Shown: positions 12,382-40,779 of the stretch, piece after piece
How positions within the stretch are numbered: position 1 is the stretch's first letter
Layout: every line of letters begins with the position of its first letter
NCBI RefSeq assembly: GCF_050320075.1
Contig: NZ_CP190018.1
DNA from: Escherichia coli
Lineage (GTDB): Bacteria; Pseudomonadota; Gammaproteobacteria; Enterobacterales; Enterobacteriaceae
DNA length: 64,000 nt
Direction: 5' to 3' (one strand)
Position numbers and translations under genes: made by a program
The notes under the pieces: generated by a model
What the model was told of the DNA's origin: nothing
Seen by the model: the letters and a program-made list of their open reading frames with translations, nothing else
Database searches by the model: none

Positions 12382-12382
12382 G

Positions 12383-16655: not shown

Positions 16656-17588
16656 ATGTTACATAAAAAAACGCTTCTTTTCGCAGCATTATCCGCCGCT
16701 CTCTGGGGCGGTGCAACACAGGCCGCAGATGCTGCCGTTGTCGCTTCGCTTAAACCCGTTGGGTTCATCGCTTCTGCCATTGCTGATGGGGTAACAGAAA
16801 CGGAGGTTTTACTACCTGACGGCGCTTCAGAACATGATTATTCACTGCGTCCATCAGATGTAAAACGCTTACAGAACGCGGACTTAGTCGTTTGGGTTGG
16901 CCCGGAGATGGAAGCGTTCATGCAAAAACCGGTAAGTAAATTACCTGAAGCGAAACAGGTAACGATTGCGCAGCTAGAGAATGTGAAACCGCTGCTGATG
17001 AAAAGTATTCACGGCGATGATGATGATCACGACCACGCGGAAAAAAGTGACGAAGATCACCATCACGGCGATTTCAACATGCATCTTTGGCTTTCCCCAG
17101 AGATAGCGCGGGCTACAGCGGTTGCAATCCATGGAAAATTAGTGGAACTTATGCCGCAAAGTCGAGCCAAACTTGACGCCAACCTGAAGGATTTTGAGGC
17201 ACAATTAGCCTCAACCGAAAAGCAGGTTGGTAACGAGCTCGCGCCGCTCAAGGGGAAAGGTTATTTCGTTTTTCACGATGCTTACGGCTATTTCGAAAAA
17301 CAGTTCGGACTGACACCGCTTGGTCATTTTACCGTTAACCCTGAGATTCAACCTGGCGCGCAGCGTTTACATGAAATAAGAACACAGTTGGTTGAGCAAA
17401 AAGCAACCTGCGTTTTTGCTGAGCCACAGTTCAGGCCAGCGGTCGTTGAGAGCGTCGCACGAGGGACATCCGTTCGTATGGGAACGTTGGATCCCCTGGG
17501 GACGAATATCAAACTGGGTAAAACAAGCTATTCAGAATTCCTGAATCAATTAGCCAACCAGTATGCGAGCTGCCTGAAAGGAGATTAA
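16656..17588 (+). CDS. znuA: zinc ABC transporter periplasmic binding protein
   Basis: Signal peptide [23 protein letters not shown] and a His/Asp-rich loop ([21 protein letters not shown]); the ORF-track start at 16530 is an in-frame upstream artefact. Confidence 0.9.
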
Positions 17589-17603
17589 TGAGGAAGTGAT
17601 TAC

Positions 17604-18926
17604 GTGCAACAGATAGCCCGCTCTGTCGCCCTGGCGTTTAATAATTTACCGCGACCACACCGCGTTATGTTGGGGTCGCTCACCGTTCTTACTCTGGCCG
17701 TCGCTGTCTGGCGGCCCTATGTTTATCACCGCGATGCCACGCCAATTGTCAAAACCATTGAGCTGGAACAGAACGAAATTCGTTCGCTCTTACCTGAAGC
17801 CAGTGAGCCGATTGATCAAGCTGCACAAGAAGATGAAGCCATTCCCCAGGATGAACTGGATGACAAAATCGCCGGTGAAGCGGGCGTGCATGAATATGTT
17901 GTTTCCACTGGCGATACGCTAAGCAGCATTCTCAATCAGTATGGTATTGATATGGGTGATATCACCCAACTGGCTGCTGCCGACAAAGAATTGCGTAACC
18001 TGAAAATCGGTCAACAACTCTCCTGGACATTAACCGCGGACGGCGAACTGCAGCGCCTCACCTGGGAAGTGTCTCGTCGTGAAACCCGAACCTATGACCG
18101 TACTGCCGCTAACGGTTTTAAAATGACCAGCGAAATGCAGCAAGGAGAGTGGGTCAACAATCTGCTGAAAGGTACCGTCGGGGGAAGCTTTGTTGCCAGC
18201 GCCAGAAACGCCGGTTTAACCAGCGCCGAAGTGAGCGCAGTGATTAAAGCCATGCAGTGGCAAATGGATTTCCGCAAACTGAAAAAAGGCGATGAATTTG
18301 CGGTGTTAATGTCACGAGAAATGCTTGATGGTAAACGTGAGCAAAGCCAACTGCTGGGCGTACGTTTGCGTTCAGAAGGTAAAGATTATTACGCAATCCG
18401 CGCTGAAGATGGCAAATTCTATGATCGTAACGGTACTGGTCTGGCGAAAGGATTCTTGCGATTCCCGACGGCGAAACAGTTCCGTATCTCGTCTAACTTT
18501 AACCCGCGTCGTACTAATCCGGTGACTGGTCGTGTTGCGCCACACAGAGGTGTTGATTTCGCCATGCCACAGGGTACGCCGGTGCTTTCAGTGGGTGACG
18601 GTGAAGTGGTGGTTGCCAAACGCAGTGGCGCAGCAGGTTATTATGTGGCTATTCGTCATGGTCGCAGCTACACCACGCGTTATATGCACTTGCGCAAGAT
18701 TCTGGTGAAACCGGGACAGAAGGTGAAACGTGGCGACCGTATCGCGCTTTCCGGTAATACCGGACGTTCAACCGGGCCGCATCTGCACTATGAAGTATGG
18801 ATAAACCAGCAGGCCGTAAACCCGCTGACGGCAAAACTGCCGCGTACCGAAGGGCTGACCGGCTCCGATCGTCGCGAATTCCTGGCGCAGGCCAAAGAGA
18901 TTGTGCCGCAGCTACGGTTTGATTAA
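17604..18926 (+). CDS. mepM: murein DD-endopeptidase MepM (M23 peptidase with LysM domain)
   Basis: 440-aa ORF with a LysM segment and M23 motifs ([15 protein letters not shown]). Confidence 0.9.
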
Positions 18927-18943
18927 TTAACATCCATTCGCAG

Positions 18944-18974
18944 CCGGTACGCAGTCAGTACCGGCTTTTTTTAT
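18944..18974 (+). terminator. rho-independent terminator after mepM
   Basis: GCCGGTAC-GCAGTCA-GTACCGGC followed by TTTTTTT. Confidence 0.6.
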
Positions 18975-19045
18975 TTGGTGCGGGGCAAGTTGCGCCGCTA
19001 CACTATCACCAGATTGATTTTTGCCTTATCCGAAACTGGAAAAGC

Positions 19046-20017
19046 ATGGAAACGAAAAAAAATAATAGCGAATACATTCCTGAGTTTGATAAATCCTTTC
19101 GCCACCCGCGCTACTGGGGAGCATGGCTGGGCGTAGCAGCGATGGCGGGTATTGCTTTAACGCCGCCAAAGTTTCGCGACCCCATTCTGGCACGGCTGGG
19201 ACGTTTTGCCGGACGCCTGGGAAAAAGCTCACGCCGTCGTGCGTTAATCAATTTGTCGCTCTGCTTTCCAGAACGTAGTGAAGCTGAACGCGAAGCGATT
19301 GTTGATGAGATGTTTGCCACCGCGCCGCAAGCGATGGCAATGATGGCTGAGTTGGCAATACGCGGGCCGGAGAAAATTCAGCCGCGCGTTGACTGGCAAG
19401 GGCTGGAGATTATCGAAGAGATGCGACGTAATAACGAGAAAGTGATCTTTCTGGTGCCGCACGGTTGGGCCGTCGATATTCCTGCCATGCTGATGGCCTC
19501 GCAAGGGCAGAAAATGGCAGCGATGTTCCATAATCAGGGCAACCCGGTTTTTGATTATGTCTGGAACACGGTGCGTCGTCGTTTTGGCGGTCGTCTGCAT
19601 GCGAGAAATGATGGTATTAAACCATTCATCCAGTCGGTACGTCAGGGGTACTGGGGATATTATTTACCCGATCAGGATCATGGCCCAGAGCACAGCGAAT
19701 TTGTTGATTTCTTTGCCACCTATAAAGCGACGTTGCCCGCGATTGGTCGTTTGATGAAAGTGTGCCGTGCGCACGTTGTACCGCTGTTTCCGATTTATGA
19801 TGGCAAGACGCATCGCCTGACGATTCAGGTGCGCCCACCGATGGATGATCTGTTAGAGGCAGATGACCATACGATTGCGCGGCGGATGAATGAAGAAGTC
19901 GAGATTTTTGTTGGTCCGCGACCAGAACAATACACCTGGATATTAAAATTGCTGAAAACTCGCAAGCCGGGCGAAATCCAACCGTATAAGCGCAAAGATC
20001 TTTATCCCATCAAATAA
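19046..20017 (+). CDS. lpxM: lipid A myristoyltransferase LpxM
   Basis: [27 protein letters not shown], LpxL/LpxM acyltransferase family. Confidence 0.9.
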
Positions 20018-20111
20018 AAAAAGCCTCTCGCGAGGAGAGGCCTCCGCCTTGTGATAAGTTCAAGTTTGCTTCAGAAGATTCGAAATCTGTTGAACTATAA
20101 TTGAACTGTAG

Positions 20112-20141
20112 GCCGGATGAGGCGTTTTCGCCGCATCCGGC
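20112..20141. repeat. REP element
   Basis: GCCGGATGAGGCGTTTTCGCCGCATCCGGC palindrome between lpxM and pykA. Confidence 0.6.
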
Positions 20142-20148
20142 AACGTAC

Positions 20149-21591
20149 TTACTCTACCGTTAAAATACGCGTGGTATTAGTAGAACCCACGGTACTCATC
20201 ACGTCGCCCTGGGTGACAATCACCAGGTCACCAGACATCAAGTAACCTTTATCGCGCAGCAGATTAACCGCTTCGCTGGCAGCTGCTACGCCGTCATTAG
20301 CGCTATCAAAGTGCACCGGCGTAACGCCGCGATAGAGAGCAGTCAGGTTCAGCGTACGTTCATGGCGTGACATGGCGAAAATTGGCAGACCAGAGCTGAT
20401 ACGGGAGGTCATCAGCGCCGTACGACCCGATTCGGTCATGGTGATGATCGCCGTAACGCCTTTCAGGTGGTTAGCCGCGTACATTGCTGACATGGCAATA
20501 GCTTCTTCCACATTGTCGAACTGCACGTCCAGACGGTGTTTAGAAACGTTGATGCTCGGGATTTTTTCCGCACCCAGGCAAACGCGCGCCATGGCTGCAA
20601 CAGTTTCTGAAGGATACTGACCAGCAGCAGTTTCTGCAGAAAGCATCACAGCGTCAGTACCATCCAGAACGGCGTTTGCTACGTCCATGACTTCTGCACG
20701 CGTCGGCATCGGGTTAGTAATCATTGACTCCATCATCTGGGTCGCCGTGATTACTGCGCGGTTAAGCTGACGCGCACGACGGATCAACGCTTTCTGAATG
20801 CCGACCAGTTCCGGGTCGCCAATTTCCACACCGAGGTCGCCACGTGCAACCATTACCACGTCAGAGGCGAGGATGATGTCATCCATTGCATCCTGGCTGC
20901 AAACGGCTTCCGCACGTTCAACCTTGGCAACAATTTTCGCATCACAGCCTGCATCGCGTGCCAGGCGACGGGCATAGTTCAGATCTTCGCCGCAGCGTGG
21001 GAAGGAGACAGCCAGGTAATCTACGCCAATTAACGCCGCAGTCTTAATGTCTGCTTTGTCTTTTTCGGTCAGCGCTTCAGCCGACAAACCGCCGCCAAGT
21101 TTGTTGATACCTTTATTGTTGGAGAGGGGACCACCGACGGTGACTTCGGTGAACACTTTCATGCCCTGAACTTCCAGTACTTTTAACTGGACGCGACCAT
21201 CGTCCAGCAGCAGGATGTCACCAGGCACGACGTCAGCAGGCAGGCCTTTGTAGTCGATACCGACTTTTTCTTTGTCGCCTTCACCTTTACCCAGGTTGGC
21301 GTCGAGCAGGAATTTATCCCCAATATTGAGGAAAACTTTGCCTTCTTTAAAGGTGGATACACGAATTTTGGGCCCCTGGAGGTCACCCAGAATAGCCACA
21401 TGACGCCCCAGTTTTGCGGCAATTTCACGAACTTTATCCGCGCGCATTTTGTGATCTTCAGGCGAGCCGTGAGAAAAGTTCATACGTACAACGTTGGCAC
21501 CCGCTGCGATAACTTTTTCAAGATTATTATCGCGATCTGTTGCTGGGCCTAACGTGGTAACGATTTTTGTTCTGCGAAGCCTTCTGGACAT
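20149..21591 (-). CDS. pykA: pyruvate kinase II
   Basis: [19 protein letters not shown]...; ORF-track ORF trimmed to the 480-aa start. Confidence 0.9.
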
Positions 21592-21718
21592 GTAATACTC
21601 CGTTGACTGAAACAACCAGGTGTTGCTTGAACATGAAATCCGAATGAAATAACGCCGCGATGGCTATAAATTAATCTCATTCGGATGTCGTATAAGATTA
21701 GGACAGTGACAGTCGTTT

Positions 21719-22588
21719 TTAGCGATCGTCACTTAAATTAAGTAACTGCTTATCAAAACGCGATTCCTTCAGCGCTTCCTTGACCCGCTTCAAGTTATCT
21801 CTGAATTTTGCACCGCGTCGCAAAGTAAATCCTGTCGCCAGCACATCTATCACGGTCAGCTGTGCAAGTCGAGAAACCATGGGCATATAAATGTCAGTAT
21901 CTTCCGGTACGTCGAGGGTAATTGCTAGCGTGGCTTCCCGGGCGAGCGGGGTACCTGCAGAGGTGAGGGCAATCACCATGGCGTCGTTTTCGCGTGCCAG
22001 CTGCGCCAGCTCGACCAGATTTTTTGTTCTTCCCGTGTGAGAAATCAGCACCACCACGTCTCCGTCGCTACAATTCATACAACTCATGCGTTGCAGCACA
22101 ATATCATCGGAGTACACCACCGGAACATTAAAACGAAAGAACTTATTCATCGCATCGTGGGCAACAGCGGCAGAAGAGCCTAATCCGAAAAAGGCGATTT
22201 TTTTTGCCTGAGTGAGTAAGTCGACGGCGCGGTTGATGGCAGATTTATCCAATGAATGACGGACATGATCGAGCGTTGCCATTGCGGACTCAAATATTTT
22301 CCCCGTGTATGATTCAACGCTGTCATCTTCATTGACGTTGCGATTAACATAGGGAGTGCCATTCGCCAGACTTTGTGCCAGATGAAGTTTAAAATCAGGA
22401 AAACCGCGCGTGTCCATGCTGCGACAGAAACGATTCACCGTCGGTTCGCTAACATTGGCTTCCAGCGCCAGAGCAGCAATACTCGAATGGATCGCGTTAT
22501 CGGGCGAAGCCAGAATGACCTCGGCAACTTTGCGCTCTGATTTGCTCAAATGTTCCAGCTGAGACTGGATTTTTTCCAGCATATTCAT
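21719..22588 (-). CDS. hexR: RpiR/HexR-family transcriptional regulator
   Basis: N-terminal HTH and C-terminal SIS domain; divergent from zwf. Confidence 0.9.
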   Translation of the reverse strand: MNMLEKIQSQLEHLSKSERKVAEVILASPDNAIHSSIAALALEANVSEPTVNRFCRSMDTRGFPDFKLHLAQSLANGTPYVNRNVNEDDSVESYTGKIFESAMATLDHVRHSLDKSAINRAVDLLTQAKKIAFFGLGSSAAVAHDAMNKFFRFNVPVVYSDDIVLQRMSCMNCSDGDVVVLISHTGRTKNLVELAQLARENDAMVIALTSAGTPLAREATLAITLDVPEDTDIYMPMVSRLAQLTVIDVLATGFTLRRGAKFRDNLKRVKEALKESRFDKQLLNLSDDR

Positions 22589-22925
22589 GATGTAAAGAGA
22601 CTCACGGGTAATGACGATTTCCGCACTGAAAGAAATCGAAATGCAGTTTTGTCAGATATTACGCCTGTGTGCTGTGTTAATGACAAAAGCAGATAAAAAA
22701 GTTGTTATTTTTTTTCATAACATGATCAGTGTCAGATTTTTACCCAATGGAAAACGATGATTTTTTTATCAGTTTTGCCGCACTTTGCGCGCTTTTACCG
22801 TAATCGCACGGGTGGATAAGCGTTTACAGTTTTCGCAAGCTCGTAAAAGCAGTACAGTGCACCGTAAGAAAATTACAAGTATACCCTGGCTTAAGTACCG
22901 GGATAGTTAACTTAAGGAGAATGAC

Positions 22926-24401
22926 ATGGCGGTAACGCAAACAGCCCAGGCCTGTGACCTGGTCATTTTCGGCGCGAAAGGCGACCTTGCGCGTCGTAAA
23001 TTGCTGCCTTCCCTGTATCAACTGGAAAAAGCCGGTCAGCTCAACCCGGACACCCGGATTATCGGCGTAGGGCGTGCTGACTGGGATAAAGCGGCTTATA
23101 CCAAAGTTGTCCGCGAGGCGCTCGAAACTTTCATGAAAGAAACCATTGATGAAGGTTTATGGGACACCCTGAGTGCACGTCTGGATTTTTGTAATCTCGA
23201 TGTCAATGACACTGCTGCATTCAGCCGTCTCGGCGCGATGCTGGATCAAAAAAATCGTATCACCATTAACTACTTTGCCATGCCGCCCAGCACTTTTGGC
23301 GCAATTTGCAAAGGGCTTGGCGAGGCAAAACTGAATGCTAAACCGGCACGCGTAGTCATGGAGAAACCGCTGGGGACGTCGCTGGCGACCTCGCAGGAAA
23401 TCAACGATCAGGTTGGCGAATACTTCGAGGAGTGCCAGGTTTACCGTATCGACCACTATCTTGGTAAAGAAACGGTGCTGAACCTGTTGGCGCTGCGTTT
23501 TGCTAACTCTCTGTTTGTGAACAACTGGGACAATCGCACCATCGATCATGTTGAGATTACCGTGGCAGAAGAAGTGGGGATCGAAGGGCGCTGGGGCTAT
23601 TTTGATAAAGCCGGTCAGATGCGCGACATGATCCAGAACCACCTGCTGCAAATTCTTTGCATGATTGCGATGTCTCCGCCGTCTGACCTGAGTGCAGACA
23701 GCATCCGCGATGAAAAAGTGAAAGTACTGAAGTCTCTGCGCCGTATTGACCGCTCCAACGTACGCGAAAAAACCGTACGCGGGCAATATACTGCGGGCTT
23801 CGCCCAGGGCAAAAAAGTGCCGGGATATCTGGAAGAAGAGGGCGCGAACAAGAGCAGCAATACAGAAACCTTCGTGGCGATCCGCGTCGACATTGATAAC
23901 TGGCGCTGGGCCGGTGTGCCATTCTACCTGCGTACTGGTAAACGTCTGCCGACCAAATGCTCTGAAGTCGTGGTCTATTTCAAAACACCTGAACTGAATC
24001 TGTTTAAAGAGTCGTGGCAGGATCTACCGCAAAATAAACTGACTATCCGTCTGCAACCTGATGAAGGCGTGGATATCCAGGTACTGAATAAAGTTCCTGG
24101 CCTTGACCACAAACATAACCTGCAAATCACCAAGCTGGACCTGAGCTATTCAGAAACCTTTAATCAGACGCATCTGGCGGATGCCTATGAACGTCTGCTG
24201 CTGGAAACCATGCGTGGTATTCAGGCACTGTTTGTTCGTCGTGATGAAGTGGAAGAAGCCTGGAAATGGGTAGACTCCATTACTGAGGCGTGGGCGATGG
24301 ACAATGATGCGCCGAAACCGTATCAGGCCGGAACCTGGGGACCCGTTGCCTCGGTGGCAATGATTACCCGTGATGGTCGTTCCTGGAATGAGTTTGAGTA
24401 A
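22926..24401 (+). CDS. zwf: glucose-6-phosphate 1-dehydrogenase
   Basis: [20 protein letters not shown]-binding motif and RIDHYLGKE active-site motif. Confidence 0.95.
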
Positions 24402-24425
24402 TATCTGCGCTTATCCTTTATGGTT

Positions 24426-24441
24426 ATTTTACCGGTAACAT
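24426..24441. promoter_or_regulatory. GntR-type operator candidate upstream of edd
   Basis: Perfect palindrome TTACCGGTAA (24429-24438) within TTTTACCGGTAACAT, resembling the recalled GntR operator consensus. Confidence 0.4.
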
Positions 24442-24635
24442 GATCTTGCACAGATTGTAGAACAATTTTTACACTTTCAGGCCTCGTGCGGATTCACCCA
24501 CGAGGCTTTTTTTATTACACTGACTGAAACGTTTTTGCCCTATGAGCTCCGGTTACAGGCGTTTCAGTCATAAATCCTCTGAATGAAGCGCGTTGTGAAT
24601 CATCCTGCTCTGACAACTCAATTTCAGGAGCCTTT

Positions 24636-26447
24636 ATGAATCCACAATTGTTACGCGTAACAAATCGAATCATTGAACGTTCGCGCGAGACTCGCTCTGC
24701 TTACCTCGCCCGGATAGAACAAGCGAAAACTTCGACCGTTCATCGTTCGCAGTTGGCATGTGGTAACCTGGCACACGGTTTCGCTGCCTGCCAGCCAGAA
24801 GACAAAGCCTCTTTGAAAAGCATGTTGCGTAACAATATCGCCATCATCACCTCCTATAACGACATGCTCTCCGCGCACCAGCCTTATGAACACTATCCAG
24901 AAATCATTCGTAAAGCCCTGCATGAAGCAAATGCGGTTGGTCAGGTTGCGGGCGGTGTTCCGGCGATGTGTGATGGTGTCACCCAGGGGCAGGATGGAAT
25001 GGAATTGTCGCTGTTAAGCCGCGAAGTGATTGCGATGTCTGCGGCGGTGGGGTTGTCCCATAACATGTTTGATGGTGCGCTGTTCCTCGGAGTGTGCGAC
25101 AAGATTGTTCCGGGTCTGACTATGGCAGCCCTGTCGTTTGGGCATTTGCCTGCGGTGTTTGTGCCGTCTGGACCGATGGCAAGCGGTTTGCCAAATAAAG
25201 AAAAAGTGCGTATTCGCCAGCTTTATGCCGAAGGTAAAGTGGACCGCATGGCATTACTGGAGTCAGAAGCCGCGTCTTATCATGCGCCGGGAACATGTAC
25301 TTTCTACGGTACTGCCAACACCAACCAGATGGTGGTGGAGTTTATGGGGATGCAGTTGCCAGGCTCTTCTTTTGTTCATCCGGATTCTCCGCTGCGCGAT
25401 GCTTTGACCGCAGCCGCTGCGCGCCAGGTTACACGCATGACCGGTAATGGTAATGAATGGATGCCGATCGGTAAGATGATCGATGAGAAAGTGGTGGTGA
25501 ACGGTATCGTTGCACTGCTGGCGACCGGTGGTTCCACTAACCACACCATGCACCTGGTGGCGATGGCTCGCGCGGCCGGTATTCAGATTAACTGGGATGA
25601 CTTCTCTGACCTTTCTGATGTTGTACCGCTGATGGCACGTCTCTACCCGAACGGTCCGGCCGATATTAACCACTTCCAGGCGGCAGGTGGCGTACCGGTT
25701 CTGGTGCGTGAACTGCTCAAAGCAGGCCTGCTGCATGAAGATGTCAATACGGTGGCTGGTTTTGGTCTGTCTCGTTATACCCTTGAACCATGGCTGAATA
25801 ATGGTGAACTGGACTGGCGGGAAGGGGCGGAAAAATCACTCGACAGCAATGTGATCGCTTCCTTCGAACAACCTTTCTCTCATCATGGTGGGACAAAAGT
25901 GTTAAGCGGTAACCTGGGCCGTGCGGTTATGAAAACCTCTGCCGTGCCGGTTGAGAACCAGGTGATTGAAGCGCCTGCGGTTGTTTTTGAAAGCCAGCAT
26001 GACGTTATGCCGGCTTTTGAAGCGGGTTTGCTGGACCGCGATTGTGTCGTTGTTGTCCGTCATCAGGGGCCAAAAGCGAACGGAATGCCAGAATTACATA
26101 AACTCATGCCGCCACTTGGTGTATTATTGGACCGGTGTTTCAAAATTGCGTTAGTTACTGATGGACGACTCTCCGGCGCTTCAGGTAAAGTGCCGTCAGC
26201 TATCCACGTAACACCAGAAGCCTACGATGGCGGGCTGCTGGCAAAAGTGCGCGACGGGGACATCATTCGTGTGAATGGACAGACAGGCGAACTGACGCTG
26301 CTGGTAGACGAAGCGGAACTGGCTGCTCGCGAACCACACATTCCTGACCTGAGCGCGTCACGCGTGGGAACAGGACGTGAATTATTCAGCGCCTTGCGTG
26401 AAAAACTGTCCGGTGCCGAACAGGGCGCAACCTGTATCACTTTTTAA
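24636..26447 (+). CDS. edd: phosphogluconate dehydratase
   Basis: 603-aa ILVD/EDD-family dehydratase. Confidence 0.95.
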
Positions 26448-26483
26448 GACGACAAATTTGTAATCAGGCGAGAGAAAACTCTG

Positions 26484-27125
26484 ATGAAAAACTGGAAAAC
26501 AAGTGCAGAATCAATCCTGACCACCGGCCCGGTTGTACCGGTTATCGTGGTAAAAAAACTGGAACACGCGGTGCCGATGGCTAAAGCGTTGGTTGCTGGT
26601 GGGGTGCGCGTTCTGGAAGTGACTCTGCGTACCGAGTGTGCAGTTGACGCTATCCGTGCTATCGCCAAAGAAGTGCCTGAAGCGATTGTGGGTGCCGGTA
26701 CGGTGCTGAATCCACAGCAGCTGGCAGAAGTCACCGAAGCGGGTGCACAGTTCGCAATTAGCCCGGGTCTGACCGAGCCGCTGCTGAAGGCTGCTACCGA
26801 AGGGACTATTCCTCTGATTCCGGGGATCAGCACTGTTTCCGAACTGATGCTGGGTATGGACTACGGTTTGAAAGAGTTCAAATTCTTCCCGGCTGAAGCT
26901 AACGGCGGTGTGAAAGCCCTGCAGGCGATCGCGGGTCCGTTCTCCCAGGTCCGTTTCTGCCCGACGGGTGGTATTTCTCCGGCTAACTACCGTGACTACC
27001 TGGCGCTGAAAAGCGTGCTGTGCATCGGTGGTTCCTGGCTGGTTCCGGCAGATGCGCTGGAAGCGGGCGATTACGACCGCATTACTAAGCTGGCGCGTGA
27101 AGCTGTAGAAGGCGCTAAGCTGTAA
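26484..27125 (+). CDS. eda: KHG/KDPG aldolase
   Basis: 213-aa [26 protein letters not shown]. Confidence 0.95.
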
Positions 27126-27128
27126 AAG

Positions 27129-27160
27129 TCAAAATGCCCGATCCTCGATCGGGCATTTTG
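27129..27160. terminator. bidirectional intrinsic terminator between eda and purT
   Basis: AAAATGCCCGATC-CTC-GATCGGGCATTTT, a perfect hairpin flanked by A- and T-runs. Confidence 0.6.
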
Positions 27161-27179
27161 GTAGCGTTTTTCGCCGGGG

Positions 27180-28358
27180 TTAAGCTTGTACTTTTATCTG
27201 TGCTGCGGCGTGCTTTGCGCGCTCAATCGCTTCATCAACACTCTCAGCGGTCGCCAGCGCAACACCCAGACGACGGCTGCCATCAATTTCCGGCTTACCA
27301 AATAAACGAATCTGTAGGCCTGCGCCTACGGCATTCTGCACATTATCAAACGTGACATTCTCACTGGTCAGTTGTGGCAGGATAACGGCAGAAGCTGCAG
27401 GACCATACTGACGGATCCCGCCAACCGGAAGTCCGAGAAAGGCTCGCACATGCAGGGCAAACTCCGAGAGATCCTGAGAAATTAACGTCACCATCCCGGT
27501 ATCATGTGGGCGAGGGGAGACCTCACTGAAAATCACCTCATCACCACAGACAAACAGCTCGACACCAAACAGCCCATAACCGCCCAGTGCCAGCACCACT
27601 TTACGGGCAATTTCTTGCGCACGTTCCAAAGCCAGCTGGCTCATTTGCTGTGGTTGCCAGGATTCACGATAGTCGCCATCTTCCTGGCGATGACCTACCG
27701 GTGCACAGAAATGGACGCCATCCACCGCGCTGACGGTTAGCAGGGTAATTTCGAAATCAAACTTGACGACGCCTTCAACAATTACGCGGCCCGCTCCGGC
27801 GCGACCGCCTTGCTGAGCGTACTCCCATGCATGAGCAAGTTGCTCTGCAGAACGAATAAACGTCTGCCCCTTGCCGGAGGAACTCATCACCGGTTTAACA
27901 ATGCAGGGATAGCCGATTTCAGCAACCGCCTTGCGGAAAAGGTTTTCGTTATCGGCAAAACGATAAGTGGAAGTGGGCAGCTGCAGCTCTTCTGCCGCCA
28001 GGCGACGGATACCCTCGCGATTCATCGTTAATTTCGTTGCGCGCGCGCAGGGGACAACATTCAGTCCTTCCTCTTCAAGTTGGATCAGCATATCGGTGGC
28101 AATAGCTTCGATCTCCGGCACGATATAATGTGGTTTTTCCAGTTCAACCACACGGCGTAATGCATCACCATCAAGCATATTAATGACATGGGAGCGATGC
28201 GCGACATGCATAGCTGGCGCGTCGGCATAGCGATCGACGGCAATCACCTCTACGCCGAGACGCTGACACTCGATTGCCACTTCTTTACCCAGTTCACCGG
28301 AGCCTAATAACATCACGCGAGTTGCTGCCGGACGCAGCGCAGTGCCTAATAACGTCAT
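27180..28358 (-). CDS. purT: formate-dependent phosphoribosylglycinamide formyltransferase
   Basis: 392-aa ATP-grasp protein [27 protein letters not shown]. Confidence 0.95.
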
Positions 28359-28394
28359 AACGAATATCCCCTGATTAATTCCGCGCGCAGTATA

Positions 28395-28410
28395 AACGAA
28401 AACGTTTGCG
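28395..28410. promoter_or_regulatory. PurR box upstream of purT
   Basis: ACGAAAACGTTTGCGC (reads ACGCAAACGTTTTCGT on the purT strand), the canonical PurR operator palindrome. Confidence 0.55.
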
Positions 28411-28452
28411 CGTGTCTTTATTGCTGATATTGATTTTCCAACCGAAAAGAAA

Positions 28453-28472
28453 TATACTGTATAAAATCACAG
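28453..28472. promoter_or_regulatory. LexA (SOS) box upstream of yebG
   Basis: TACTGTATAAAATCACAGTT, a CTGT-N8-ACAG box about 20 bp upstream of yebG. Confidence 0.6.
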
Positions 28473-28491
28473 TTATTATGAGAGGCTGCAA

Positions 28492-28782
28492 ATGGCGGTT
28501 GAAGTTAAATACGTAGTCATTCGTGAGGGCGAAGAGAAAATGTCGTTTACCAGCAAAAAGGAAGCCGATGCTTATGACAAAATGCTTGATACGGCGGATC
28601 TGCTTGACACCTGGCTGACAAATTCTCCAGTGCAAATGGAAGACGAGCAACGTGAAGCCCTTTCGCTATGGCTGGCAGAACAAAAAGATGTGCTGAGCAC
28701 CATTCTGAAAACCGGCAAATTACCGTCCCCACAGGTCGTCGGTGCTGAATCCGAAGAGGAAGATGCCTCACACGCGGCCTGA
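28492..28782 (+). CDS. yebG: SOS-inducible protein YebG
   Basis: 96-aa ORF MAVEVKYVVIREGEEKMSF. Confidence 0.85.
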   Translation: MAVEVKYVVIREGEEKMSFTSKKEADAYDKMLDTADLLDTWLTNSPVQMEDEQREALSLWLAEQKDVLSTILKTGKLPSPQVVGAESEEEDASHAA

Positions 28783-28800
28783 AGCAACTTGCGCTCCTGA

Positions 28801-29205
<405 letters not shown>

Positions 29206-29531
29206 TGGCTTCTGATAATTCGATTGACCGTTGGCGGATGCGGCGCGAGTGCCTTATCCGCCCCACAACGCACCACAATCGTAGGCCTGAGAAGACGCAA
29301 CAGCGTCGCATCGGGCAATCAGCATCAAACAGTGCTACTCAAAACGTCAAACTACTTTCACCTAAAATACCCTTATCATCTGATATACAGTGAACACCTT
29401 ACCTGGCGGGAATTTCTTTGAATAACGGCCAACCGCCCCGCTTATTTGCGCATCTTTTGTCTCGATATACATTTTCTGACATCCTCATCCGCTATGCTAC
29501 AGGCACTAAAAATGGTTATTGAGGAGCAAAT

Positions 29532-30191
29532 ATGGCTAACTGGTTAAATCAACTGCAATCCCTGCTTGGGCAAAGCAGTTCTTCTGCCTCCTCGTCTGCG
29601 GATCAGGGATTGGGCAAACTTTTAGTGCCGGGCGCATTAGGCGGACTGGCTGGGCTGCTGGTCGCAAATAAATCAGCACGTAAACTTCTTACGAAATATG
29701 GCACCAACGCGTTGCTGGTTGGCGGCGGAGCGGTAGCGGGTACGGTGCTGTGGAATAAATACAAAGATAAAATTCGCGCGGCGCATCAGGACGAACCGCA
29801 GTTTGGCGCGCAAAGTACGCCGCTGGATGAGCGTACTGAACGTTTGATCCTTGCGCTGGTCTTTGCCGCTAAAAGTGATGGTCATATTGATGCCAAAGAA
29901 CGTGCGGCAATCGATCAGCAATTGCGTGAAGCCGGCGTGGAAGAGCAGGGGCGTGTACTCATTGAGCAGGCAATCGAACAACCGCTGGATCCACAACGCC
30001 TGGCTACCGGGGTCCGCAATGAAGAAGAGGCGCTGGAAATCTATTTCCTGAGCTGCGCGGCTATTGATATTGACCATTTTATGGAACGCAGTTACCTGAA
30101 TGCACTGGGTGACGCGCTGAAAATCCCCCAGGACGTTCGTGAAGGCATTGAACGCGATCTCGAACAACAAAAACGCACTTTGGCGGAATAA
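29532..30191 (+). CDS. yebE: DUF533-family inner-membrane protein YebE
   Basis: 219-aa [28 protein letters not shown]. Confidence 0.85.
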
Positions 30192-30354
30192 TTCCGCTCT
30201 CTGGATAGCCTGAAGTTGACTATTTCGGGCTATCCAGAACCGCACAGCCATTTGAGCAGGCTGATTTTCTCTGTCTGCATAACATTCGATATCCGCGCCA
30301 TTACCTGTCATCATGTGACTGCTCCCCGCCCTGTCGGGCGAGGCTTCCCACTTC

Positions 30355-31524
30355 TTAAGCCGCAACCGTCTGTGTGACGGATTTACGCTGGCCTCCATGG
30401 GCAGAAACGACGAGTCCCGCCGCTTGTAATTCCAGTATGCCCTTGCGTTTGATGTTGAGCGCCGCGTTGATATCGCGGTCATGTTCAACTCCACACTCTG
30501 GACACTGCCAGATGCGCTTATGTAATGGCATCTCCGACATTTTGTGACCGCAGCAGTGGCAGGTCTTCGAACTGGCGAACCATTGATCCAGTTTCACCAG
30601 ATGCACACCTTTCTCTGTTGCTTTGTATTCCAGTTTTGTGATGAATCCAGACCATCCAGCATCGCCTATCGCACGAGCCAGATGGTGATTTTTCATCATA
30701 TTTGCCATTTTCAATGTCTCGACAATTACCGCTTGGTTTTCGTCAACAATTGCGCGAGATAACTTGTGCTGGAAATCGGCACGGGCACCGGCTACCCGTT
30801 CGTGAACGGCTGCAAGTTGTATTCTGGCTTTGCGCCTGTTTGCGCTCCCTTTTTTCTTACGGGACAGTGCTTTCTGCTTCCGGCGCAGGTTGCGACTTGC
30901 ATTGATTAGGTGGCGGGGACTGGCAATTTTATTGCCGTCCGATTTGATGACAAAATGCGCCAGCCCCATATCCAGCCCTGTCACATTTGATATCAGTGCG
31001 GGCTTTGCCGGCGCTTCCATCCCGTCGTCACAGAGTAACGACGCGTAGTATTTCCCGGTTGCGCTGCGGCTCAACGTGATACTTTTCAGCATTCCCGTAA
31101 TTTCACGATGTAAACGCGCTTCAATCGGCAAGATTTTCGGTATTTTTATCGCAGCATCAAGGACTTTTATGCCAACACAATGGTAGCTCGATTGTCTGCC
31201 GTGTTTACTTTTAAAGGTAGGTTTACCTGCTTTCAGTTTCGGATTGAAAAAGTTAGAAAAAGCCACGTCGAGGTTAATTACCGCCTGCTGCAACGCAATA
31301 GAATCATATTCTTTAAGCCATCCATACCGGCGGGATTTCTTCGCCACTGCAAGCAGTGGTTTGAGGTCTTTACGCGGGTTTAAATTTACGCGGTGCCGCT
31401 GGTAAGAATGTTTCTTGATATGCAGAGCTTTGTTGTACGCAAAACGCACTGCACCGAACTGGGCGTTGATAAATTCAGCCTGTTCTGGTGTCGGGTAGAT
31501 GCGTACTTTTGTTGCTCTTAACAT
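30355..31524 (-). CDS. tnpB: IS200/IS605-family TnpB (OrfB; RuvC-like RNA-guided nuclease family)
   Basis: 389-aa ORF with an OrfB N-terminal HTH region, a RuvC-like core and a C-terminal zinc finger (CHCCGHKMSEMPLHKRIWQCPECGVEHDRDINAALNI). Confidence 0.85.
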   Translation of the reverse strand: MLRATKVRIYPTPEQAEFINAQFGAVRFAYNKALHIKKHSYQRHRVNLNPRKDLKPLLAVAKKSRRYGWLKEYDSIALQQAVINLDVAFSNFFNPKLKAGKPTFKSKHGRQSSYHCVGIKVLDAAIKIPKILPIEARLHREITGMLKSITLSRSATGKYYASLLCDDGMEAPAKPALISNVTGLDMGLAHFVIKSDGNKIASPRHLINASRNLRRKQKALSRKKKGSANRRKARIQLAAVHERVAGARADFQHKLSRAIVDENQAVIVETLKMANMMKNHHLARAIGDAGWSGFITKLEYKATEKGVHLVKLDQWFASSKTCHCCGHKMSEMPLHKRIWQCPECGVEHDRDINAALNIKRKGILELQAAGLVVSAHGGQRKSVTQTVAA

Positions 31525-31580
31525 AATCAGCGCTCATTGATATAATGCTTTTATTTTAACACTTTAGGTAAATATATCAA

Positions 31581-32006
31581 TTGAGTAATCATGATGATTT
31601 ACTGGCGGGATTTCTCCGCAAACGACACAGTGTCAGTAAGCTGGTTGTGCACCTTATTTTTACGACAAAGTATCGACGCAAACTATTCGACAGTCAGATG
31701 ATCGCTCAGTTGCGTGAGGCTTTTGGCTCCGCTGCGGCAAAGCTTGAATGCGAAATTATTGAGATGGACGGGGAGCCAGACCATGTACACCTGCTGGTTG
31801 CCTACCCGCCAAAACTGGCGGTCAGTGTGATGGTCAATAATTTAAAATCGGTATCATCACGTTTGCTACGCCAGCAGAACGCGCATTTACGCATGCAGAG
31901 TAAAACGGGGCTTTTGTGGTCGAGATCGTACTTTGTCTGTAGCACCGGAGAGGCAACGATTGAAACGCTCAGAGCCTACGTTCAGAGTCAGTCAACACCT
32001 GATTGA
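31581..32006 (+). CDS. tnpA: IS200/IS605-family TnpA (HuH Y1 transposase)
   Basis: 141-aa ORF with a TTG start; HuH motif HVHLLV and a catalytic-Tyr region WSRSYFVCSTG. Confidence 0.8.
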   Translation: MSNHDDLLAGFLRKRHSVSKLVVHLIFTTKYRRKLFDSQMIAQLREAFGSAAAKLECEIIEMDGEPDHVHLLVAYPPKLAVSVMVNNLKSVSSRLLRQQNAHLRMQSKTGLLWSRSYFVCSTGEATIETLRAYVQSQSTPD

Positions 32007-32135
32007 TCTTTAAAGCCCTGCGGGCTTTTCGCCTTATATCCCCGCCCGCATTGGGCGAGGGTTTACGGCGTTTTTCGCTAAGCAATGACTACCCTGTTTC
32101 GCTTGCATCTCCGGTGAGTTTTGCCACCCTTATAA

Positions 32136-34882
<2,747 letters not shown>

Positions 34883-34905
34883 GGCATGCTCCAGGCCGAA
34901 AAAGC

Positions 34906-35562
34906 CTAGCGTAATGGAATGATATCGCCTTGCCAACCCTGTGATGAACGCTGACCGACTAACAATAATGAACCACGATCGGCGCGAACGATGAGACGAC
35001 CATGTTCATCCCATAGTGCACTGTTACCACGGGCATTTGCCATCAGCACGGCAATTGAGTACTGATGTGAAAAAAATTGTAAGCGGCGGGTAGATGCCAG
35101 TAGGTCGGGTTCCCCCAGACATTGCCCTGTCGTAAACAGTGAACAGGTCGGATCCATATCCATACCTTCCGGTTGTTCATCGACCACCGTGATGGTTCTG
35201 GAACGACGGCCCAGACATGCACCATGACTCTGATGGTAGATCCCTGGTGTTTTTCGCCACGGTGCGAACACCGCAATTCCACGAATAAAGCGATCGTTAT
35301 ATTCAACGGGAAGGCCGGCAATGATGGTCATTCGCCAGGTCGTTGCAGCATAACAAAGCGGGTCTAACAGCGAGAGATCGGGTGGGGCAGGAAGGGCACG
35401 TCGCGAATAATCACACCCCAGTAAAGAAAGCGATGGAAAAACTAACAGCTGACATTGTTGCCTGGCGGCGGCCCTCACAAACTCCAGATGATGAGCTACC
35501 TGTTCGGTCAGTGAGGTTTTACGAGGCTCATATTGCGCTGCTGCAACTTTCCAGAACGACAT
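34906..35562 (-). CDS. yobB: carbon-nitrogen hydrolase-family protein YobB
   Basis: 218-aa ORF in the conserved position between exoX and holE. Confidence 0.8.
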   Translation of the reverse strand: MSFWKVAAAQYEPRKTSLTEQVAHHLEFVRAAARQQCQLLVFPSLSLLGCDYSRRALPAPPDLSLLDPLCYAATTWRMTIIAGLPVEYNDRFIRGIAVFAPWRKTPGIYHQSHGACLGRRSRTITVVDEQPEGMDMDPTCSLFTTGQCLGEPDLLASTRRLQFFSHQYSIAVLMANARGNSALWDEHGRLIVRADRGSLLLVGQRSSQGWQGDIIPLR

Positions 35563-35663
35563 AATGACTTCCTTTTCAAAATGACTGCAAATTATGGGTG
35601 CGGTTTAGAAAATACTCATAATTTAGCAGGCGTTATGTAAGAAAGTGTAACTCTGTATAAGTT

Positions 35664-35894
35664 TTATTTAAGTTTGGGCTCGTAAGGTAAACGTGACAGA
35701 TTGACCGAAGCCAAACGGTGGGCGATAAGCCGCTCGCGAAACCAGCTGCGCAAATGTTCAGGCTGTTCACGTTCAACCGCTTCAGCGATCACCGGCATAT
35801 TGTAGCGTTCTTTAAATGCCACCCCGGCCGCCGCCAAATCGACATTCACTTTATCCATTTCTGTTTGATCCAGTTTAGCCAGATTCTTCAGCAT
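35664..35894 (-). CDS. holE: DNA polymerase III theta subunit
   Basis: [35 protein letters not shown]; trimmed to 76 aa. Confidence 0.85.
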
Positions 35895-36032
35895 TCTTAA
35901 TCTCCTCATCATTCGCGGGCAAAAGTTACTAAGAGTGAGCCTGGATGGCAAGCCGGAATTGATGATCCTCGACTCAGACATTAGACAAGGTTATGCTCTG
36001 TAAAAAAGTTATTACAAAAAGGAATAGATAAT

Positions 36033-36407
36033 ATGGCTTCAACTGCACGCTCCCTTCGCTACGCGCTGGCAATCCTGACCACTTCGTTGGTGACACCTTC
36101 CGTCTGGGCACATGCGCATTTAACGCATCAGTATCCTGCGGCAAATGCGCAAGTGACAGCTGCCCCGCAGGCAATCACTTTAAACTTCTCGGAAGGCGTT
36201 GAAACAGGATTCAGTGGTGCAAAAATCACGGGGCCAAAAAACGAAAATATTAAAACATTACCGGCGAAGCGGAATGAGCAGGACCAAAAGCAACTGATTG
36301 TTCCACTGGCCGATTCGCTGAAACCCGGAACCTACACCGTTGACTGGCATGTTGTTTCGGTGGACGGGCATAAAACGAAAGGACACTACACCTTTAGCGT
36401 GAAATAA
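36033..36407 (+). CDS. yobA: CopC-family periplasmic copper-binding protein
   Basis: 124-aa ORF with a signal peptide and the HAHL motif directly after the cleavage site. Confidence 0.85.
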   Translation: MASTARSLRYALAILTTSLVTPSVWAHAHLTHQYPAANAQVTAAPQAITLNFSEGVETGFSGAKITGPKNENIKTLPAKRNEQDQKQLIVPLADSLKPGTYTVDWHVVSVDGHKTKGHYTFSVK

Positions 36408-36410
36408 ATC

Positions 36411-37283
36411 ATGCTGGCGTTTACCTGGATCGCGCTGCGATTTATCCATTTCACCTCGCTGATGCTGGTCTTTGGCTTCGCAATGTACGGTGCCTGGCTG
36501 GCCCCCTTAACGATTCGTCGCTTGCTGACGAAGCGTTTTCTGCGTTTACAACAGCACGCTGCCGTCTGGAGTTTGATCAGTGCCACTGCAATGCTCGCCG
36601 TTCAGGGCGGGTTGATGGGAACGGGATGGACAGATGTATTTTCGCCAAACATTTGGCAGGCTGTTTTGCAAACGCAGTTTGGTGGCGTCTGGTTATGGCA
36701 AATTGTTCTCGCCCTCGTAACGCTGATCGTCGCCCTTATGCAACCGCGGAATATGCCACGTTTGATGTTTATGCTCACTACCGCGCAATTTATTCTGCTG
36801 GCGGGAGTCGGGCATGCGACGCTGAATGAAGGGGTAACGGCGAAAATCCATCAGACTAATCACGCGATTCACCTGATCTGTGCGGCGGCGTGGTTTGGGG
36901 GATTACTGCCGGTGCTCTGGTGTATGCAACTCATCAAAGGTCGTTGGCGACACCAGGCTATTCAGGCGCTGATGCGTTTTTCCTGGTGCGGGCATTTTGC
37001 GGTGATCGGCGTACTGGCAAGCGGCGTGCTTAATGCATTGTTGATTACCGGATTTCCCCCCACGCTTACGACTTACTGGGGCCAACTCTTATTGCTCAAA
37101 GCCATCCTGGTGATGATTATGGTGGTCATCGCGCTGGCTAATCGTTATGTTCTTGTACCGCGCATGAGGCAGGATGAAGATCGTGCGGCACCCTGGTTTG
37201 TGTGGATGACTAAACTCGAATGGGCGATAGGTGCGGTAGTGCTGGTGATCATCAGCCTGCTTGCGACTCTCGAACCTTTTTGA
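36411..37283 (+). CDS. yebZ: CopD-family inner-membrane protein
   Basis: 290-aa polytopic membrane protein immediately downstream of yobA. Confidence 0.85.
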   Translation: MLAFTWIALRFIHFTSLMLVFGFAMYGAWLAPLTIRRLLTKRFLRLQQHAAVWSLISATAMLAVQGGLMGTGWTDVFSPNIWQAVLQTQFGGVWLWQIVLALVTLIVALMQPRNMPRLMFMLTTAQFILLAGVGHATLNEGVTAKIHQTNHAIHLICAAAWFGGLLPVLWCMQLIKGRWRHQAIQALMRFSWCGHFAVIGVLASGVLNALLITGFPPTLTTYWGQLLLLKAILVMIMVVIALANRYVLVPRMRQDEDRAAPWFVWMTKLEWAIGAVVLVIISLLATLEPF

Positions 37284-37295
37284 TGGATTACGAAA

Positions 37296-37637
37296 ATGAT
37301 GAAAAAAAGTATTCTGGCGTTTCTGTTACTCACCAGTTCTGCAGCGGCGCTGGCTGCACCGCAGGTGATTACCGTTAGCCGTTTTGAAGTGGGTAAAGAC
37401 AAATGGGCGTTTAATCGCGAAGAGGTGATGCTGACTTGCCGACCGGGTAATGCTTTGTATGTCATCAACCCAAGTACCCTCGTGCAGTATCCTTTAAACG
37501 ATATCGCACAAAAGGAAGTTGCCAGTGGGAAGACTAAAGCCCAACCCATTTCGGTGATTCAGATTGATGATCCTAACAATCCCGGCGAAAAAATGAGTCT
37601 GGCACCGTTTATAGAACGAGCTGAAAAACTCTGTTAA
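37296..37637 (+). CDS. yebY: DUF2511 protein YebY
   Basis: 113-aa ORF with a signal peptide. Confidence 0.85.
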
Positions 37638-37667
37638 TTACCTAAAATAGCCTTTTGATTTCCAATA

Positions 37668-37712
37668 AAAAAACCGCCTCAGTTCTTTCACCAGAACGGG
37701 CGGTTTTTAACA
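37668..37712. terminator. bidirectional intrinsic terminator after yebY
   Basis: AAAAACCGCC...GGCGGTTTTT hairpin with flanking A- and T-runs. Confidence 0.55.
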
Positions 37713-37795
37713 TTTAAGCTGATGGCCACCGCGCTTTTTATTGACCATTTTGCACGCAAACTGGAAAACCTGGCGTCGTCATCTATTCTTAAAGG

Positions 37796-37898
37796 GCAAG
37801 GCAACTAAGCCTGCATTAATGCCAACTTTTAGCGCACGGCTCTCTCCCAAGAGCCATTTCCCTGGACCGAATACAGGAATCGTGTTCGGTCTCTTTTT
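37796..37898 (+). ncRNA. sdsR: small RNA SdsR (RyeB); the antisense sRNA RyeA (SraC) is expected to overlap on the - strand
   Basis: GCAAGGCAACTAAGCCTGCATTAATGCCAACTTTTAGCGCACGGCTCTCTCCCAAGAGCC...CGAATACAGGAATCGTGTTCGGTCTCTTTTT matches the recalled SdsR sequence, including its terminator hairpin and U-tail; located between yebY and pphA as expected. Confidence 0.7.
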
Positions 37899-38032
37899 AT
37901 CTGTTAAAAGCCAGAAGCATTCCCTTCGCTGACTTTATAGTCAACCATAACACACACTCTACTGTCTGAGTCCAGCGTTTTTTAACATTCTTGTTAAGAT
38001 TATGTGATCTTTAGCGCGGGAGGAAAATATTG

Positions 38033-38689
38033 ATGAAACAGCCTGCGCCCGTTTATCAGAGAATTGCGGGTCATCAATGGCGACATATCTGGCTTTCAGG
38101 CGATATACACGGTTGTCTTGAGCAGTTGCGCCGCAAATTATGGCATTGTGGTTTTGATCCGTGGCGAGATTTACTTATCTCAGTGGGAGACGTTATCGAT
38201 CGTGGGCCGCAAAGTTTACGTTGCCTGCAGTTACTGGAACAACATTGGGTTCGTGCGGTAAGAGGCAATCATGAACAGATGGCGATGGATGCGCTGGCAT
38301 CCCAGCAGATGTCTTTATGGTTGATGAATGGCGGCGACTGGTTTATTGCGCTGGCAGATAATCAACAGAAACAAGCGAAAACGGCGCTGGAAAAATGTCA
38401 GCATTTGCCCTTTATTCTTGAAGTACACAGTCGCACCGGCAAGCATATTATTGCTCATGCCGATTATCCAGATGATGTTTATGAATGGCAAAAGGACGTC
38501 GATTTGCATCAGGTCTTGTGGAGCCGCTCGCGATTAAGTGAACGCCAAAAAGTGCAGGGAATTACAGGTGCTGATCATTTCTGGTTTGGTCATACACCGT
38601 TGCGCCATCGCGTGGATATTGGCAACCTGCATTATATTGATACAGGTGTTGTCTTTGGGGGCGAACTGACTGTTGTGCAATTGCAATAA
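38033..38689 (+). CDS. pphA: serine/threonine protein phosphatase 1
   Basis: Metallophosphatase motifs GDIHGC and GDVIDRG...GNHE. Confidence 0.9.
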   Translation: MKQPAPVYQRIAGHQWRHIWLSGDIHGCLEQLRRKLWHCGFDPWRDLLISVGDVIDRGPQSLRCLQLLEQHWVRAVRGNHEQMAMDALASQQMSLWLMNGGDWFIALADNQQKQAKTALEKCQHLPFILEVHSRTGKHIIAHADYPDDVYEWQKDVDLHQVLWSRSRLSERQKVQGITGADHFWFGHTPLRHRVDIGNLHYIDTGVVFGGELTVVQLQ

Positions 38690-38881
38690 TTAAAAATCAC
38701 CGTACTCCTGTGCAGGTCGCCAGAAACCATCTATAAAATCCTCAATCGGAAAACAACCGCCATGGCGGATCCGTTGATCGCTCATAGAATAAAGACACTG
38801 CTGTTCCGTGTTGTAGACATCCACAACAATATCTTCACAACCGCCATCCAGGTAGCAAACAAAAAGTACCAGCGCGAACAT
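38690..38881 (-). CDS. yebW: small protein YebW
   Basis: ORF-track ORF trimmed to the internal Met (MFALVLFVCYLDGG...), giving 63 aa. Confidence 0.5.
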   Translation of the reverse strand: MFALVLFVCYLDGGCEDIVVDVYNTEQQCLYSMSDQRIRHGGCFPIEDFIDGFWRPAQEYGDF

Positions 38882-38985
38882 TTCATCCCCGAAGTGTGGT
38901 GCCGTACCGTTAAGTTTAGGAGAGATTTTACAACGGGGGAATAACCAGGACAAATAACCCGCCATGCCGACGGGTTCTTTTTGGA

Positions 38986-39222
38986 TTAGGCAAGACGCAT
39001 AATCCAGGCATCAGATTGTTGATCGTAACGGGTACGGTAAAGGACAGAGTGTTCGCCATTTAGCAGGGCAGGGATACTGGTTTCAGCATCCCAGGCATCC
39101 AGTTGCATACATAAATCGGGGTCAGATTTACAAGGAATGGTTAACGTTCGATCACCCGGCGATTCGCCGTGTAATTCGCCGTCGTCGATTTCAAAAGCGC
39201 CTATGCGCACACTGGTTTTCAT
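38986..39222 (-). CDS. yebV: small protein YebV
   Basis: MKTSVRIGAFEIDDGELHGESPGDRTL..., 78 aa after trimming. Confidence 0.7.
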   Translation of the reverse strand: MKTSVRIGAFEIDDGELHGESPGDRTLTIPCKSDPDLCMQLDAWDAETSIPALLNGEHSVLYRTRYDQQSDAWIMRLA

Positions 39223-39339
39223 CTTCGTGCTCTCCATTTAGCTGCCGATTGTGGTACGACCAGTCCGATCGCACCATTTTTCAGCCTAGTTGAGGCAGCC
39301 GAATGTGCCAGTCAAAAAGTGCGCTTTTTTTGTGCGCTG

Positions 39340-40779
39340 TCAGGCGTTACCGGTAAAAAGTTTCCCATCGCGCACCAGTTCACGCGGGTAGCTGTTTTTC
39401 AGTCGCGAACCAATTCGTTTGGCTAAACCAATCGGCTGATGCTGGAAAGTAACCAATACATCATCCGCTACTGGCGCGGCTTGCGGGTAAACATCGCGCC
39501 CGCGATACCACTCCTCCGCTTCCTGCGCCGTTAGTTCAAAAGCGTTCACATTGTCGGGTGAGGCAAGGGCAATAACCGCTTCATGCTGCCAGCGATAACC
39601 TTTGTTATGCGTTTCGGCAAGTTTAATCCCCAGGCGAGAAAATCGGACTTTACCGATCAGGGCTTCAATGCCCACCGGGAACAACCACAGTTCTTTGTCA
39701 CGCTGCCAGAGGCGCAGGTTTTCATCCCAGTTTAAGCCAACACCTGCAGCCGCCTGACGAATTTGTCCAGCTTCGCGATCTTTCACCGGGCTAAACGGGA
39801 AATTGCCCACTTTGTATTTTGGGGCGGGTAAGACGGGGATCGCCTGAGTTTTACGCAGACGAGCAACGAAGAAGCCTTCGCAGTCGTAAATTTGTGGGAA
39901 AACATGCAAAAAGCCTTCTTCGGTCAGCGCCTTATTTGCACCAGGGAAGAGATCGCCAAGCGGTAAAAACTCTACTGCATCGGGGTAAGTCTCTTTAAGC
40001 CACCGGCAGACGGCTTCATTTTCTTCCTGGTTTAAGGTACAGGTCGAGTAAACCAGCGTACCGCCAGGGCGTAATGCATGAAAGGCGCTGTCGATCAGTT
40101 CCCGTTGGGTAGCTGCGATTTCCTGATTGCTTTCTGGTGACCAGTTTTTTAGCGCATCGGGATCTTTACGCACCACGCCTTCGCCGGAGCAGGGAGCGTC
40201 CAGCAAAATGGCATCGAACATTTCTGGCACTGCCGCACCAAATACACGGCCATCAAAATGCGTGAGCGCAACATTACGGATGCCACAGCGGCTGATATTG
40301 GCATGTAACACTTTTACCCGACTGGCGGAAAACTCATTGGCAAGGATAGCCCCTTCGTTATTCATCCGCGCGGCAATTTGCGTCGTTTTGGAGCCTGGCG
40401 CAGCAGCGACATCCATCACCCGCTGTGGTGCATTACCGTCAGCAAACAAGGCGGCAACGGGCAACATTGAACTGGCTTCCTGAATATAAAACAGGCCGCT
40501 TAAATGCTCGGCGGTACTACCCAATGGCAATGCATCTTCATCGTCGCGTTCAATCCAGAAACCTTCTTCACACCACGGAATTGGCGTAAGCGTCCAGCCA
40601 TAAGAGGCGGTTAATTGCAGGAAATCAGCAACGGAGATTTTCAGCGTATTAACGCGAATGCTGCGGCGCAACGGGCGCTGACAGGCGGCAAGAAAATCAT
40701 CAAAAGAGAGCGTCGAAGGCATCGCTTCGCGCATTTGCGTCAGAAAGGCGTCCGGGAAATAAACGGTGTGTTGGGCCAC
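39340..40779 (-). CDS. rsmF: 16S rRNA m5C1407 methyltransferase
   Basis: NOL1/NOP2/Sun-family SAM-dependent methyltransferase with the DAPCSGEG motif; about 479 aa with a GTG start. Confidence 0.9.

Follow-up and report, generated by a model that had tools for sequence, protein, structure and literature searches.

PurR is a repressor of the LacI/GalR type, and its operator at purT lies close to the LexA box of the divergently transcribed gene yebG. Both sites are already known, having been established experimentally in Escherichia coli K-12 (Cho 2011, PMC3159470; Belliveau 2018, PMC6003448). For purT, a PurR ChIP-chip peak with the motif ACGAAAACGTTTGCGT has been described in K-12, and adenine represses the gene in a PurR-dependent manner (Cho 2011, PMC3159470). 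The account that Belliveau 2018 gives of the same spacer, analysed by Sort-Seq, places a repressor site between the purT -35 and -10 elements that is seen only with adenine and whose energy matrix resembles that of PurR (r = 0.82); DNA affinity chromatography with hypoxanthine enriched PurR, deleting purR abolished the repressor signal, and simple repression fits the purT promoter (PMC6003448). For yebG, an SOS box has been reported in K-12 together with UV induction and a MEME SOS motif (Thomassen 2010), and in the yebG part of the Sort-Seq account mitomycin C induces the gene, sites for LexA and RNA polymerase are identified, and the polymerase site lies 9 bp further downstream than an earlier computational annotation had put it (Belliveau 2018, PMC6003448). 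In Salmonella, yebG is 41-fold induced and has a single LexA box 17 bp from its ATG (PMC8072944).

The DNA analysed here, a stretch of 64 kb that we refer to as the window, comes from an E. coli chromosome. A 501-bp query taken around the purT-yebG spacer has a match in 5425 of 5426 complete E. coli genomes. The query is 100% identical to the top matches listed, including CFSAN061763, and the features beneath it are annotated as purT and yebG; the names of both genes are thus those of the RefSeq annotation of a collinear genome that is identical across the query. Transfer of coordinates from CFSAN061763 was restricted to 7363..49358, beyond which insertions separate the two sequences. The gene order is zwf, edd, eda (kdgA) and purT on the minus strand, followed by yebG, yebF and yebE on the plus strand, and the spacer between the divergent genes purT and yebG measures 133 bp (28359..28491), with 37% G+C (Table 1). 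The corresponding genes of K-12 MG1655 (b1849/b1848) are likewise separated by 133 bp, the LexA box there is identical to that of the window, and the PurR box has the same position between the purT -35 and -10 hexamers. In an alignment of 171 columns, which reach 19 bp into each gene, K-12 and the window differ by four substitutions, one of which lies inside the PurR box (position 28411, C in the window and T in K-12). An earlier note on this DNA had described an intact core region, with a PurR box and a LexA box side by side at 28390..28475 between divergent genes, and we were able to confirm this description: both motifs lie within that interval, and the spacer has the K-12 length with few substitutions. 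The purT-yebG region is thus unaltered E. coli core genome. No terminators were found in a scan of 28250..28900, and at Rfam gathering thresholds the purT-yebG spacer contained no RNA family.

Several features of the window outside this region were also recorded. Its first 7362 nucleotides form the terminal part of a prophage that abuts yecE, with genes for tape measure, baseplate and recombinase proteins, and at least 80% of this stretch is present in just 14 of the 5426 complete E. coli genomes; CFSAN061763, the closest collinear genome, has yecM-cutC-torYZ-cmoAB-yecN in its place. Between yebE and ptrB there is a 1763-bp insertion relative to K-12 (30315..32077). This element, ISEc46 of the IS200/IS605 family, carries a gene for the RNA-guided endonuclease TnpB/InsQ at 30355..31524 on the minus strand and tnpA from 31581 on the plus strand. 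At about 49349..49358, between htpX and yebQ, the window is without a 711-bp IS200C copy that CFSAN061763 carries. The Rfam matches elsewhere in the window, in the regions 37758..37902 and 53391..53851, are the overlapping antisense small RNA pair SraC/RyeA (minus strand) and SdsR/RyeB (plus strand) and a cspA-type thermoregulator, the latter presumably a leader upstream of the cold-shock gene annotated cspE.

Table 1. Features of the purT-yebG control region. Conservation is the mean majority-base frequency over 44 aligned spacers, the window counted among them.
Feature	Position	Strand	Conservation	Basis and remarks
purT, formate-dependent GAR transformylase, 392 aa	27180..28358	-		ORF; RefSeq annotation, same coordinates in collinear genome; Pfam ATP-grasp and PurT_C
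purT -10-like hexamer TATACT	28389..28394	-	0.97	Consensus scan
PurR operator, 16-bp imperfect palindrome	28396..28411	.	0.96	Plus strand ACGAAAACGTTTGCGC, purT strand GCGCAAACGTTTTCGT; weight matrix, conservation
purT -35-like hexamer AAGACA	28413..28418	-	0.80	Consensus scan; conserved in Enterobacteriaceae, different in Erwiniaceae
Stretch between both -35 hexamers			0.46	
yebG -35-like hexamer TTGATT	28430..28435	+	0.70	Consensus scan; placement tentative
yebG promoter spacer			0.45	
yebG -10-like hexamer TATACT	28453..28458	+	0.97	Consensus scan; conservation partly confounded by overlap with LexA box
LexA (SOS) box TACTGTATAAAATCACAGTT, 20 bp	28455..28474	.	0.99 (CTGT and ACAG arms)	Core CTGT-N8-ACAG CTGTATAAAATCACAG at 28457..28472; weight matrix, conservation
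yebG, DNA-damage-inducible protein, 96 aa	28492..28782	+		ORF; RefSeq annotation; Pfam YebG 4e-34
yebF, downstream gene	28849..29205	+		Annotation; reported under LexA control along with yebG

The PurR operator was scored with a matrix built from 27 ChIP-supported sites (Cho 2011, Table 1) from which the purT site itself had been excluded. It reaches 21.3 bits and ranks first among all positions of the 64-kb window, the next match having 13.1 bits; none of 200 shuffled windows attained its score, and it outscores 23 of the 27 training sites. That next match, at 50030..50045 with 13.07 bits, equals the mean maximum of the shuffled windows and was rejected as a chance occurrence. Compared with ACGNAAACGTTTGCNT, the box is a 16-bp imperfect palindrome with the central CG. 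The earlier note was right that a canonical PurR box is present, but the sequence that it quoted for the purT strand, ACGCAAACGTTTTCGT, is wrong at base 1, where the window reads GCGCAAACGTTTTCGT, so that quotation and window (ACGAAAACGTTTGCGC on the plus strand) agree at 15 of 16 bases. When the window is aligned with MG1655, the quoted string proves to be the allele of K-12, which has T at 28411, so that the note gave the K-12 sequence and not that of the window. Given the published work on K-12, we would expect the allele of the window to be bound by PurR, and purT to be regulated by it, in the same way.

For LexA, the bare CTGT-N8-ACAG pattern is not significant in the window, with two matches against 0.78 expected and two or more in 17 of 100 shuffles, and the full 20-bp matrix was therefore used; the second match of the bare pattern, at 2459, was set aside as chance. 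The matrix was built from 17 SOS boxes (Thomassen 2010, Table 4), again with the yebG site excluded, and its bit scores were used in place of the classical LexA heterology index. The yebG site scores 20.3 bits and ranks second in the window, a score attained by one of 200 shuffles. The top match, with 21.3 bits, is the LexA box of ruvAB (CGCTGGATATCTATCCAGCA, 13191..13210, upstream of ruvA), which is itself a member of the training set. The yebG 20-mer fits TACTG(TA)5CAGTA, with CTG-N10-CAG arms, is identical to the K-12 and published yebG box, and overlaps the -10-like hexamer of yebG; 17 bp separate it from the yebG ATG. The weight-matrix scans that the earlier note had proposed as a check were accordingly passed by both sites, and the CTGT-N8-ACAG core that it had read is the core of a LexA box identical to that of K-12. 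By analogy with K-12, LexA would bind this box in the window and yebG would be induced by DNA damage. The Salmonella enterica box (PMC8072944) has the same 17-bp distance to the ATG and goes with strong DNA-damage induction, but its middle eight bases differ.

Variation in the middle of the box is also found within E. coli. A 56-mer covering the LexA region of the window is exact in 3570 of 5394 genomes, and the yebG LexA box is polymorphic in its middle bases with the CTGT and ACAG arms kept (L085..L088), an O157:H7 strain having TACTGTATAGAATCACAGTT and two other strains TACTGTATAAAACCACAGTT. In E. coli MS 21-1 (L089), similarity to the window breaks off midway through the LexA box, at about 28460, and all DNA upstream of this junction is unrelated; a ClbS/DfsB-family gene stands in the place of purT, and this genome keeps neither the yebG -10 nor the left arm of the box.

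A consensus scan of the spacer returned AAGACA-18-TATACT on the minus strand and TTGATT-17-TATACT on the plus strand, each matching 9 of 12 consensus positions. The PurR box occupies the 18-bp spacer of the former, the putative purT promoter, in agreement with Belliveau 2018, where the PurR site is placed between -35 and -10. The plus-strand match is tentatively taken as the yebG promoter, on the consensus scan and on a conservation that is confounded by the overlap with the LexA box. Between the two -35-like hexamers there are 11 bp, and the promoters would therefore stand back to back without overlapping. The earlier note had put the two operators within about 60 bp of each other, which describes the distance between their centres well (61 bp), their facing edges being 45 bp apart.

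We propose that the spacer consists of two back-to-back sigma-70 promoters, each with its own repressor acting by simple steric repression, and that the two work as independent switches; we put the probability of this reading at roughly 0.93. A PurR dimer with its corepressor, hypoxanthine or guanine, would bind the operator of purT, and since this operator fills the gap between the purT -35 and -10 elements, RNA polymerase would be excluded when purines are plentiful. On the other side, a LexA dimer would cover the -10 hexamer of yebG as well as the probable start of its transcription, and would thereby block initiation at yebG, and with it expression of the downstream yebF, until DNA damage leads to RecA-stimulated self-cleavage of LexA and yebG initiation is released. 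The PurR and LexA switches would thus be independent, lying side by side through gene neighbourhood and without cooperation between the sites.

It could be argued that the purT switch of the window is set differently from that of K-12, because of the substitution in the operator. Position 28411 is the outermost base of the operator, and of the 27 other published sites 22 have T there and 5 have C, so that the C of the window costs 2.5 bits relative to the T of K-12 in the PurR matrix. The substitution is also common: exact 54-mer counts over about 5420 genomes gave 1442 for the allele of the window (about 27% of complete E. coli) and 3667 for that of K-12, which makes them the two main E. coli alleles. 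On the matrix loss, PurR affinity for the allele of the window could be somewhat lower than for that of K-12, and a stronger version of the argument holds that the C (read on the purT strand, a G at base 1) reduces PurR binding enough for purT to be partly derepressed in this lineage, for which both the matrix loss and the frequency of the two alleles may be cited. However, the purHD operator of K-12 (ACGAAAACGTTTGCGC; Cho 2011, Table 1) is a 16-mer identical to the purT operator of the window and is bound in vivo, although it sits at another promoter, whose -35/-10 context is not the same by default. Moreover, the same C is found in several other genera, Klebsiella, Salmonella arizonae, Erwinia and Intestinirhabdus among them, which suggests that it is tolerated, and the base affected is the outermost one of the operator. 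We consider partial derepression of purT unlikely, and C at 28411 probably has little or no functional effect. The related proposal, that purines repress purT to measurably different degrees in different E. coli lineages, depending on the C/T polymorphism, seems to us slightly more doubtful again; there is a precedent for an operator polymorphism of this kind in a SNP of the Salmonella yebG LexA box that alters expression heterogeneity (PMC8072944). A common single-base polymorphism in the PurR operator is nonetheless the one small lead that this locus offers.

Independence of the two switches can be set against an alternative in which PurR and LexA, or the two polymerases, are coupled through the spacing of about 60 bp, such that DNA damage affects purT or purines affect yebG. 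A survey with one genome per species carrying YebG gave 80 loci, of which 59 have purT and yebG adjacent and divergent, with a spacer of 128 to 141 bp and in one locus 261 bp; they belong to Escherichia, Citrobacter, Salmonella, Kosakonia, Klebsiella, Raoultella, Erwinia, Pantoea and other genera of the Enterobacteriaceae and Erwiniaceae. Both boxes are present at each of the 59, with scores of 18.8 to 23.8 bits for PurR and 16.9 to 29.5 bits for LexA, and in the orthologues of these two families 14 to 19 bp separate the LexA box from the yebG ATG. With the near-universal presence of the region in E. coli, this bears out the remark of the earlier note that the arrangement is conserved biology. 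In most of the 59 adjacent loci the centre-to-centre distance of the two boxes is 59 to 63 bp, and this constancy, together with the short distance of 11 bp between the -35-like hexamers, is what would favour coupling. Two fixed promoter geometries in a short spacer already predict a constant spacing, however, and six species with adjacent genes have other spacings, namely 69 to 73 bp (L006, L026 to L028), 59 bp (L040) and 188 bp (L049). Coupling is also disfavoured by the conservation profile of the spacer, in which the sequence between the -35 hexamers is poorly conserved (Table 1), and by the Belliveau 2018 account of this locus, where the features are directional, each promoter is given its own sites alone and simple repression suffices for purT (PMC6003448).

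A further argument against coupling comes from the species in which the two genes lie apart. In 20 loci of Yersinia, Serratia, Edaphovirga and Chimaeribacter (L054, L056, L057, L059 to L062, L066 to L069, L072 to L076, L078 to L080 and L082), purT and yebG are 1.7 to 2.1 kb apart, and each box is kept with its own gene, so that adjacency is dispensable. Upstream of purT, the PurR box (20.2 to 23.8 bits) is found there at a distance of 57 to 88 bp, and upstream of yebG, the LexA box at one of 16 to 38 bp. Counting adjacent and separated loci together, 79 of the 80 have a PurR box upstream of purT (18.8 to 23.8 bits), and 79 likewise have a LexA box upstream of yebG (16.9 to 29.5 bits); the remaining locus, Yersinia nurmii (L055), had no purT match in the flank and a best LexA score of 7.6 bits upstream of yebG. 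That the boxes stay with their own genes when these are separated suggests that their side-by-side layout reflects the neighbourhood of the genes and no joint mechanism, and we regard coupling as very improbable. In Yersinia pestis (L079), the one separated locus for which open reading frames were listed, the gap holds a 460-aa DEAD-box helicase gene on the yebG strand (1025..2407), which appears DbpA-like by its sequence motifs.

The last alternative, that the motifs are chance matches without a regulatory role, to which the behaviour of the bare CTGT-N8-ACAG pattern in the window might seem to lend itself, is refuted by full-matrix scores that far exceed the window and shuffle background, by the strong conservation of the boxes across genera, unlike that of the flanking spacer, and by the published K-12 experiments on an identical LexA box and a near-identical PurR box, and next to nothing of it survives.

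Two independent switches in one spacer therefore remain our preferred reading, and the interpretation given in the earlier note, of a known PurR/LexA control region, holds, its sole error being the one misquoted base of the PurR box. Leave-one-out matrix scans recover exactly the sites established by experiment, which makes the locus a useful positive control, and the region may be regarded as a textbook pair of independent repressor-operator systems. A known system with a comparable layout is uvrA/ssb, which is also a divergent pair with an SOS box in its spacer. There, however, one box serves both genes, whereas at purT-yebG the LexA box serves yebG alone and purT has a repressor of its own from an unrelated family, PurR.
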